From: an uncultured virus (IMG/VR IMGVR_UViG_3300044911_002384)
Lineage: Duplodnaviria > Heunggongvirae > Uroviricota > Caudoviricetes
Direction: 5' to 3' (one strand)
Virus record (IMG/VR): IMGVR_UViG_3300044911_002384
Length of the DNA stretch: 20,000 bases
A program made the position numbers and the translations under genes. Of this stretch, positions 972 to 1,052 are shown piece by piece (the stretch's first letter is position 1; each line of letters starts with the position of its first letter). Under the pieces are notes generated by a model, which was given only the letters and a program-made list of their open reading frames with translations, did no database searches and was not told where the DNA came from.

Positions 972-976
972 GTTTT

Positions 977-1041
977 TCTCCTTAAATTAAGCAAGATTTT
1001 TGGACTCGTGTCCTTTGTACAACCCTTAAGGCGCTGCACAA
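977..1041 (-). promoter_or_regulatory. Structured 5' UTR of dnaK, ROSE-like RNA thermometer candidate
   Basis: Three hairpins on the minus-strand RNA: UUGUGCAGC..GUUGUACAA (1015-1041), GGAC-ACGA-GUCC (1002-1013), and UCUUGCUUA-AUU-UAAGGAGA (977-996), in which UUGCU pairs with the SD leaving a bulged G. Confidence 0.65.
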
Positions 1042-1044
1042 TCT

Positions 1045-1052
1045 TATTTATC
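1045..1052 (-). promoter_or_regulatory. Putative phage late promoter (GATAAATA) upstream of dnaK
   Basis: Resembles T4 late promoter TATAAATA. The same motif recurs before 8 gene starts. Its TAA is the stop codon of the upstream gene. Confidence 0.55.

Follow-up and report, generated by a model that had tools for sequence, protein, structure and literature searches.

Does a bacteriophage that encodes its own Hsp70 also carry a bacterial-type heat-shock switch in front of the gene? This question is raised by 20,000 nucleotides (nt) of DNA from an uncultured virus of the Caudoviricetes (IMG/VR record IMGVR_UViG_3300044911_002384), hereafter called the window, in which dnaK is preceded by a leader that the original prediction took for a ROSE-like RNA thermometer gating translation of the phage Hsp70. 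Our analysis indicates that this leader is probably a phage copy of a short ROSE-type translational control element of the Rfam ROSE_3 class, and it is best read as a diverged three-hairpin member of that class of short two-hairpin elements. We infer that translation is repressed by hiding of the Shine-Dalgarno (SD) sequence and, by homology only, that this repression would depend on temperature. To our knowledge, RNA thermometers are known almost only from bacteria, with a handful from phages. All coordinates given here are window positions (Table 1); the leader, dnaK and the upstream open reading frames (ORFs) lie on the minus strand, which carries every gene of the window's first 20 kb.

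ROSE-like thermometers are described as multi-hairpin leaders whose 3' hairpin contains an imperfect pairing of a U(U/C)GCU motif with the SD, leaving a predicted bulged G that a crystal structure places between a U.G and a C-G pair (PMC11342760, PMC3669281). The window leader has the same arrangement: a U(U/C)GCU motif faces the SD, a bulged G lies beside a U.G and a C-G pair, and folds of the untranslated region (UTR) alone contain three hairpins with the SD hairpin in the 3'-proximal position. The three hairpins proposed earlier between the box GATAAATA and the dnaK ATG are present in the sequence as described and were recovered by the minimum free energy (MFE) fold of the UTR; from the presumed transcript start to the AUG, the MFE structure consists of exactly three hairpins at 10-45 °C. 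Isolated and UTR-only folds also agree that the last hairpin pairs UUGCU with the SD, with G992 bulged and U993.G980 as a wobble. UUGCU (994-990) stands opposite AAGGAG (983-978), and C991-G981 is paired beside the bulge. The isolated SD hairpin folds as ((((.((((...)))))))), with energies of -6.7, -5.0, -3.3, -2.2 and -0.9 kcal/mol at 10, 20, 30, 37 and 45 °C, and in the UTR-only fold GGAG is unpaired with a mean probability of 0.02 at 10 °C and 0.24 at 45 °C. For the 93-nt stretch 1052-960, the folding z-score is -3.36, with 1 of 200 shuffles folding as well. An alternative three-way junction, also proposed earlier and formed by AAGAUU with AAUCUU, did not hold up: it is not conserved (a complementary run of at least 5 occurs in 18 of 63 unique leaders), and AAGAUU would lie at or before the likely transcript start. 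Two further readings were judged by eye and discarded, namely the middle hairpin as a CIRCE-like element (no 9-bp arm with an N9 spacer) and the CTTGCTT strand as part of a sigma-32 or sigma-70 promoter (no matching -10).

Relatives of the locus were collected by searching IMG/VR with the DnaK fragment, which yielded 585 confirmed relatives among 595 candidates; the best 80, with 83-100% amino acid (aa) identity, were kept. The same leader plan is found in 79 of these 80 loci, the 80th being cut 17 nt upstream of the gene. It comprises NATAAATA, a hairpin with a phage-variable stem, in some cases a second small hairpin, (A/U)UCUU(G/A)CUU, a loop of 2-8 nt, AAGGAGA and the ATG. One leader, of the locus L002 on a 165.8-kb contig estimated to represent 47% of its genome, equals the window leader over the 110 nt compared. 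The seven core pairs of the SD hairpin, which we call hairpin II, are standard in 58-61 of 60-61 unique dnaK leaders. Within the anti-SD strand, C2, U3, C6 and U7 are invariant in all 61 unique dnaK modules, and position 4 has U in 58 of them and C in the other 3. The same strand was found before hsp20 and groES genes.

Covariation was counted on a model-fitted alignment of 85 distinct leaders, which is biased towards the structure of the model; anchor-based counts on the 61 unique dnaK modules concur with it. An earlier attempt with MAFFT and RNAalifold on 42 leaders had given no consensus structure, since that alignment was not structure-aware, and was replaced by the covariance-model alignment. 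Hairpin I shows both-sided changes at 10 of 10 pairs of its first helix, with 93.8% of cells paired. In some leaders with three hairpins, that of the window among them, it is the middle hairpin to which this helix was fitted. In the SD helix, 97.3% of cells are paired. For the whole structure, the covariation score is 0.396 compared to 0.124 after shuffling (0 of 500 shuffles as high), and cells are 95.3% paired in register versus 52-63% with partners shifted by 1-3 columns. When hairpin II of the phages (CUUA/UAAG) is set beside that of Pseudomonas (CUGA/UCAG), one pair differs on both sides, in this single comparison. The SD hairpin is supported threefold: its non-coding strand is invariant despite a fully changed hairpin I, it recurs before three unrelated coding sequences, and it is homologous to that of ROSE_3.

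The homology was examined with the Rfam ROSE models RF00435, RF01832 and ROSE_3 (RF02523; gathering score 43 bits). The Rfam search put forward with the original prediction gave a divided outcome, in that ROSE_3 matched sibling leaders at 24-39 bits, below its cut-off, and not the window leader itself. The hsp20 and dnaK leaders of one relative (L012) scored 38.6 bits (E = 2.2e-4) and 32.4 bits (E = 0.0086), a groES leader 30.5 bits (E = 0.026), the dnaK leader of a further relative 24.1 bits (E = 1.1), the hsp20 leader of L002 26.8 bits (E = 3.8e-4) and the hsp20 leader of the cultured Methylophilales phage Melnitz 34.1 bits (E = 1.7e-4); the ibpA leader of Pseudomonas citronellolis, a species-level relative of validated thermometers, scored 29.1 bits (E = 0.0014). 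On 20 of the scanned hsp20 loci, ROSE_3 gave one match of 52.5 bits (above 43), three of 30-35 bits and, for the other 16, nothing at E<=0.01. Thus, the ROSE_3 cut-off misses most viral members of the class. The hairpin-I apex GAUGCC...GGGUC of the ROSE_3 consensus is shared with the phage leaders.

The window itself was reached with a covariance model (R1) made from nine hsp20 leaders of other phages and containing no dnaK leader. Run unfiltered, its sole significant match in the window lies at 1014-969 (28.6 bits, E about 2e-6), the next in 20 kb scoring 10 bits, and the hairpin I of R1 was placed on the middle hairpin there. In 69 loci (419 kb), R1 produced 88 matches at E<=0.01, including Melnitz, and all position-checked ones are at dnaK, hsp20 or groES starts. 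ROSE_3 run over 15 viral records gave matches at E<=0.1 in 4, none over the cut-off, with 2 of 14 control genomes also matched, and in four Burkholderiales genomes there were 0 matches; these scans therefore did not find a host origin of the cassette. Rfam as a whole gave only chance-level matches in the 501-nt and 101-nt stretches of the window that were searched, to STnc410, mir-1255, freshwater-2 and Mu-gpT-DE. As a separate observation, the weak freshwater-2 (RF02980) matches fall on the leader (window 969-1036, minus strand, 12.4 bits, and L002 4887-4946, 20.8 bits; cut-off 49.9); the freshwater-2 consensus also ends in a hairpin ... AAGGAGAAAAcAAAUG, and this metagenome-derived motif may overlap the present leader class.

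In these phages, the element keeps to chaperone genes. A regular expression for the anti-SD/SD module, run over both strands of the 80 loci (516,201 nt), gave 153 matches, 82 of them at dnaK starts and 71 elsewhere; judged by N-termini, the latter comprise 3 alternative ATGs in the same leaders, 5 GroES-like ORFs and about 63 cases before an IbpA-like (hsp20-like) ORF after dnaK. The hsp20 leader of L002, for example, has 65 nt and consists of a hairpin with the apex GACGCC...GGGUC followed by AUCUUGCUUAAAUAAAGGAGA. Two module matches, at dnaK and hsp20, are found in a 400-kb genome (100% complete), in the L002 contig and, as the CUUACUU variant, in a 353-kb genome (98% complete). One 108-kb record carries the module on dnaK and, 30 kb away, on an hsp20 with its own AATAAATA box, and another record of 108 kb carries it on hsp20, dnaK and groES. 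As a control, the pattern was reversed and then matched 0-1 times per whole record. Across IMG/VR, the pattern CTTGCTT-N2-6-AAGGAGA-N4-9-ATG occurs in at least 123 stretches, and in the 80 examined the ORF behind the match belongs to HSP20 (65), HSP70 (4), Cpn10 (1), AAA_33 (1) or no family (9), so that 70 of the 80 sampled matches precede chaperone genes. Of the nine ORFs without a family, four are fragments no longer than 45 aa that begin like hsp20, and two encode unknown small proteins and have the complete cassette. Upstream of a 90-aa and a 65-aa ORF, neither with a Pfam match, we noted a promoter-like box, hairpin I and CUUGCUU...AAGGAGA; these could be further members of the regulon.

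Cultured phages also carry the cassette on hsp20, namely Melnitz (MZ577098; TATAAATA, a hairpin, AAUCUUGCUUAACUAAGGAGA), Synechococcus phage S-H38 (MW117965; UCUCGCU...AGGAGA) and Pelagibacter phage HTVC115P (MN698247; ACUCGCUUAACGAAAGGAG). Upstream of the closest bacterial dnaK genes, the arrangement CU(U/C)(G/A)CU...AGGAG was found in 0 of 79 (79 of 80 loci, one being without a gene start). The closest bacterial DnaK proteins are 74-82% identical and mostly from Burkholderiales, and CTTGAA, common upstream of these genes, is read as a sigma-32-like -35 element. Judged from the upstream sequences, the leader is a phage feature and was not imported with dnaK, and the best reading is that, within T4-like aquatic phages, the cassette was copied to dnaK and groES from hsp20. 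The DnaK of Moraphage, considered as a related case, was set aside, being described as Flavobacteriales-derived and belonging to a different lineage (PMC12619734).

The leader would be transcribed from the box upstream of it, which resembles a late promoter. The T4-type late promoter is TATAAATA in T4 and NATAAATA in T4-like cyanophages (PMC2984593). Among 64 unique upstream regions of homologous dnaK genes, 60 have the latter at a distance of 52-83 nt from the ATG, and the remaining four have one-letter variants of it. In the window, the box ends 73 nt before the dnaK ATG, and the stop codon TAA (1050-1048) of the upstream exonuclease ORF falls inside it. ATAAATA occurs 4 times in the window, with 9.3 expected, each time on the gene strand with an ORF downstream; no ROSE-type module follows the other three boxes in the window, one of which stands before a 301-aa ORF that weakly matches a PHROG for a virion structural protein. 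The window phage belongs to a T4-like jumbo phage lineage of lakes, because the near-complete relatives of 353 and 400 kb both encode a T4 Gp23-type major capsid protein and the sequencing runs that hold the window stretch carry lake-water labels. RNA-library contigs cover the leader, one exact over 167 nt (820-986) and one 94% identical (791-1140) that reaches across the end of the upstream gene; neither shows a 5' end nor proves transcription.

We propose that the T4-type late promoter (GATAAATA) would start the dnaK message at the foot of hairpin I, that hairpin I and the small middle hairpin would act as stable scaffolds, and that the 3' hairpin would mask the SD AAGGAG against UCUUGCUU. 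The pairing might be weak by design, through the U.G wobble, the bulged G and an energy of about -5 kcal/mol at 20 °C that falls to -2 at 37 °C. Access of the 30S subunit would then be low in the cold and higher as the hairpin melts, resulting in more DnaK when it is warmer. Since this phage has the same cassette in front of hsp20, and relatives have it in front of groES, these genes could form one post-transcriptional chaperone regulon for which host sigma-32 would not be needed.

The closest known system is the Pseudomonas ibpA leader of the ROSE_3 class, in which, as in the phages, hairpin I is stable and the hairpin II after it is weak, its U(U/C)GCU being imperfectly paired with the SD (PMC3669281). 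The two also share the hairpin I apex ...UGCC-loop-GGGU..., and sibling phage leaders reach 24-52.5 bits with the ROSE_3 model, compared to 29.1 for Pseudomonas. The window copy differs in having an extra middle hairpin and no Rfam match and in preceding dnaK, not a small heat-shock gene; a T4-type late promoter box takes the place of a sigma-32 promoter before it, and its hairpin II is about 2 kcal/mol weaker at each temperature. A large sister clade has A in the bulge. ROSE-like and ROSE-G RNAs before bacterial ABC transporter genes resemble the window leader in the bulged G between U.G and C-G facing the SD, and there deletion of the bulge or a change of U.G to C-G reduced or abolished heat induction (PMC11342760, PMC12857270). 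Their genes and hosts differ, and the CUGCU of ROSE-G with two opposed bulged Gs is not seen in the window leader. Among phages, the lambda cIII messenger is an RNA thermometer that uses two alternative folds. The fourU element of SPbeta blyA is another phage thermometer (PMC10586365). In both, a fold of a phage mRNA leader controls ribosome access, and the two folds of cIII recall the pair of competing structures discussed below; however, their sequences and motifs are unrelated, and they involve neither a chaperone gene nor a multi-gene regulon. Searches of the full-text literature, which did not cover subscription journals, turned up no account of a ROSE element ahead of a phage chaperone gene.

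Several observations weigh against the assignment of the leader to the ROSE class or against its function as a thermometer. Rfam ROSE, ROSE_2 and ROSE_3 gave no match to the window leader at E<=10, in searches with 501 nt and with 101 nt. Of the 61 unique modules, 40 have G at the bulge and 21 have A, and the UUACU form lies outside the U(U/C)GCU definition. The covariation looked for after the original prediction is present in hairpin I, and the UUGCU/SD pairing is conserved in homologues, but hairpin II shows none: of its seven pairs, four are invariant, one changes on one side (U.G to C-G) and two vary by unpaired cells only. Hairpin II is thus supported by invariance, which a sequence-specific binding factor would also account for. 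When 12-30 nt of coding sequence are included in the fold, UUGCUUA (994-988) is predicted to pair with UGAGCAA (970-964), in what we call helix B, and not with the SD; helix B then has an ensemble probability of 0.46-0.85 at 5-50 °C, that of hairpin II is 0.37 at 5 °C and 0.04 at 37 °C, and above 15 °C the SD is for the most part unpaired. Among 62 dnaK leaders, hairpin II exceeds a probability of 0.5 at 20 °C in 6 with a 110-nt context and in 34 as UTR only (hsp20 leaders: 9 of 48 and 15 of 48, respectively). Finally, it is not obvious why a late-transcribed chaperone in a lake phage would sense heat.

The folding ensembles carry little weight either way. Applied to the Pseudomonas ibpA leader, this calculation gives no melting, with an unpaired GGAG probability of 0.34-0.41 at 10-45 °C; nearest-neighbour ensembles therefore fail on a leader of the validated class and are uninformative for that class. 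As an isolated structure, hairpin II of the dnaK leaders has a mean energy of -4.7 ± 1.1 kcal/mol at 20 °C and -2.0 ± 0.8 at 37 °C, about 2 kcal/mol weaker than that of Pseudomonas at the same temperature. In these models, the weaker SD hairpin fits, but does not show, a tuning to cooler water.

Heat shock is rare in lakes, and the source of the window is labelled lake water. The leader might instead be a fixed translational attenuator or an mRNA-stability element with no temperature role, its weak SD hairpin setting a low constant rate behind a strong late promoter and its 5' hairpins blocking 5'-end-dependent decay, although we consider this rather unlikely. The SD hairpin is marginally stable at every temperature computed, hairpin I stands at the presumed 5' end of the transcript, and predicted SD accessibility in the UTR-only fold shifts only gradually between 10 and 45 °C, as such an element would have it. 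On the other hand, the element is confined to chaperone genes in genomes of 350-400 kb, and other window genes behind ATAAATA boxes are without it. The homology is moreover to a class with bacterial members shown to be temperature-responsive (PMC3669281).

Pairing of the anti-SD strand with the start-codon region, which the original prediction overlooked and which is predicted by our models, suggests a further alternative specific to dnaK. The strand could alternate between the SD (hairpin II) and the start region (helix B) as a two-state switch, in which control lies mainly in occluding the start region or what is sensed is the balance of the folds. We regard this as improbable. Helix B is the MFE pairing when coding sequence is included, and across 62 dnaK leaders the anti-SD strand has a partner downstream of the SD with a median probability of 0.54-0.59. 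The 7-bp complements of two clades differ but share one register, UUGCUUA:UGAGCAA and GAUCUUA:UAAGAUC. In 48 of 61 modules, the codons used give a helix B pairing energy that ranks, often with ties, in the best quartile among synonymous alternatives. The helix B pair 5:6' (G:C in 28 modules, A:U in 20, G:U in 11, non-standard in 2) was first read as compensatory. This was dropped as strong evidence after the same G/A split at the bulge was seen in hsp20 and groES leaders of the same clade, whose coding sequences differ, which makes the change lineage-specific and not compensatory. Moreover, two leaders with A:A and one with G:A disrupt the pair, C6 and U7 are invariant even in the clade whose helix B leaves them unused, and the counts rest on phylogenetically dependent sequences. 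Helix B is therefore kept as a sub-hypothesis and not as the main structure. The complementarity of UUGCUUA and UGAGCAA within window 964-994, and that of the sister-clade GAUCUUA and UAAGAUC, may be selected or incidental.

It seems still less probable that a trans-acting factor, such as a phage or host protein or a small RNA, binds the UCUU(G/A)CUU...AAGGAGA module or the hairpin I apex and thereby co-regulates the chaperone genes. Both strands of hairpin II are conserved in sequence beyond what pairing requires, and the hairpin I apex YGCC...GGGY is conserved while the stem covaries. However, the ribosome accounts for conservation of the SD, no candidate factor was found, none having been looked for, and bacterial ROSE-like elements work factor-free, as indicated by 30S toeprinting in vitro (PMC3669281). 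A ROSE-type element hiding the SD remains our preferred reading.

The leader of T7 gene 10 is an A/U-rich translational enhancer, to which the clade-2 leaders (CUUACUUUAUAAGGAGAUAU) can be likened, and it is very unlikely that the U-rich strand upstream of the SD is an enhancer of this kind with incidental SD complementarity, given that 7-8 bp of complementarity are retained in 58-61 of 60-61 modules, that other genes of the same phages are without the element and that the ROSE_3 matches take in the hairpin.

Table 1. Positions of the dnaK leader, its parts and other features in the 20,000-nt window
Feature	Position	Strand	Basis or remark
Promoter-like box GATAAATA	1052-1045	-	Match to NATAAATA late promoter of T4-like phages
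Hairpin I, UUGUGCAGC-G-CC UUAA GG-GUUGUACAA	1041-1015	-	Predicted; YGCC...GGGY apex common to ROSE_3 hairpin I
Middle hairpin, GGAC-ACGA-GUCC	1013-1002	-	Predicted; only a subset of dnaK and hsp20 leaders has one
Hairpin II (third, SD hairpin), UCUU-G-CUUA / AUU / UAAG-GAGA	996-977	-	Predicted
Anti-SD strand UCUUGCUUA, with ROSE motif UUGCU and bulged G	996-988	-	Fold and homologue conservation
SD and 3' strand of hairpin II, UAAGGAGA	984-977	-	Folds and pair counts
Start codon ATG (971-969) and codons 2-3; helix B partner UGAGCAA	971-964	-	Predicted
dnaK (Hsp70), first 323 codons	3..971	-	Pfam HSP70, E = 5.6e-148; gene continues past window edge
Rv2179c-like 3'-5' exonuclease ORF	1629..1048	-	Upstream neighbour of dnaK
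Ribosomal protein S21 ORF	1899..1669	-	Pfam Ribosomal_S21, E = 3.7e-16; two genes upstream of dnaK
(G/A)ATAAATA box	3897-3904	-	Before unknown 534-aa ORF
(G/A)ATAAATA box	14212-14218	-	Before ribonucleotide reductase large subunit
(G/A)ATAAATA box	18068-18075	-	Before 301-aa ORF
Endolysin	5594-6169	-	Other window cargo
NifU-like Fe-S assembly protein	7331-7753	-	Other window cargo
'Toxin' PHROG ORF	9021-9473	-	Other window cargo; E = 2.6e-18
Class I ribonucleotide reductase subunits	10207-14178	-	Other window cargo

The gene surroundings of the leader extend beyond the window edge in L002, which derives from the same phage population. There, dnaK, whose full-length product has 625 aa, is followed (positions 4879-6969) by hsp20 (Pfam HSP20) with its own ROSE_3-type leader, ClpS, heme oxygenase and an ORF with a histidine box that resembles a membrane desaturase. 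Together these form a small proteostasis cluster; clpS of L002 has no match to the regular expression for the anti-SD/SD module. Megablast with window 1-3000 against cultured phages gave no match, and the records matched by tblastn with DnaK were all distant or bacterial-like, with identities of at most 76%. Ribosomal protein S21 acts at SD-dependent initiation, and the phage-encoded S21 may be relevant to the reading of SD-sequestering leaders in infected cells.

Taken further, it is possible, though we advance this only tentatively, that T4-like jumbo phages of lakes, and with hsp20 the marine phages Melnitz, S-H38 and HTVC115P, run a chaperone regulon of their own. The ROSE cassette would have spread from hsp20 to dnaK and groES behind late promoters; its weak SD hairpin would melt at 5-25 °C, matching chaperone output in virion assembly to water temperature without sigma-32, and the dnaK copy would be a two-state switch through start-codon pairing.

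A known bacterial heat-shock switch reappears as a reusable cassette on the DnaK, Hsp20 and GroES genes of phages. Hundreds of contigs from uncultured aquatic phages have it, and at least three cultured phages have it on hsp20. Being short and self-contained, the element lends itself to a standard reporter test, and the cultured marine phages make the prediction testable in culture. If temperature is sensed, the folding capacity of these phages, and perhaps their burst size, would follow water temperature through RNA alone.

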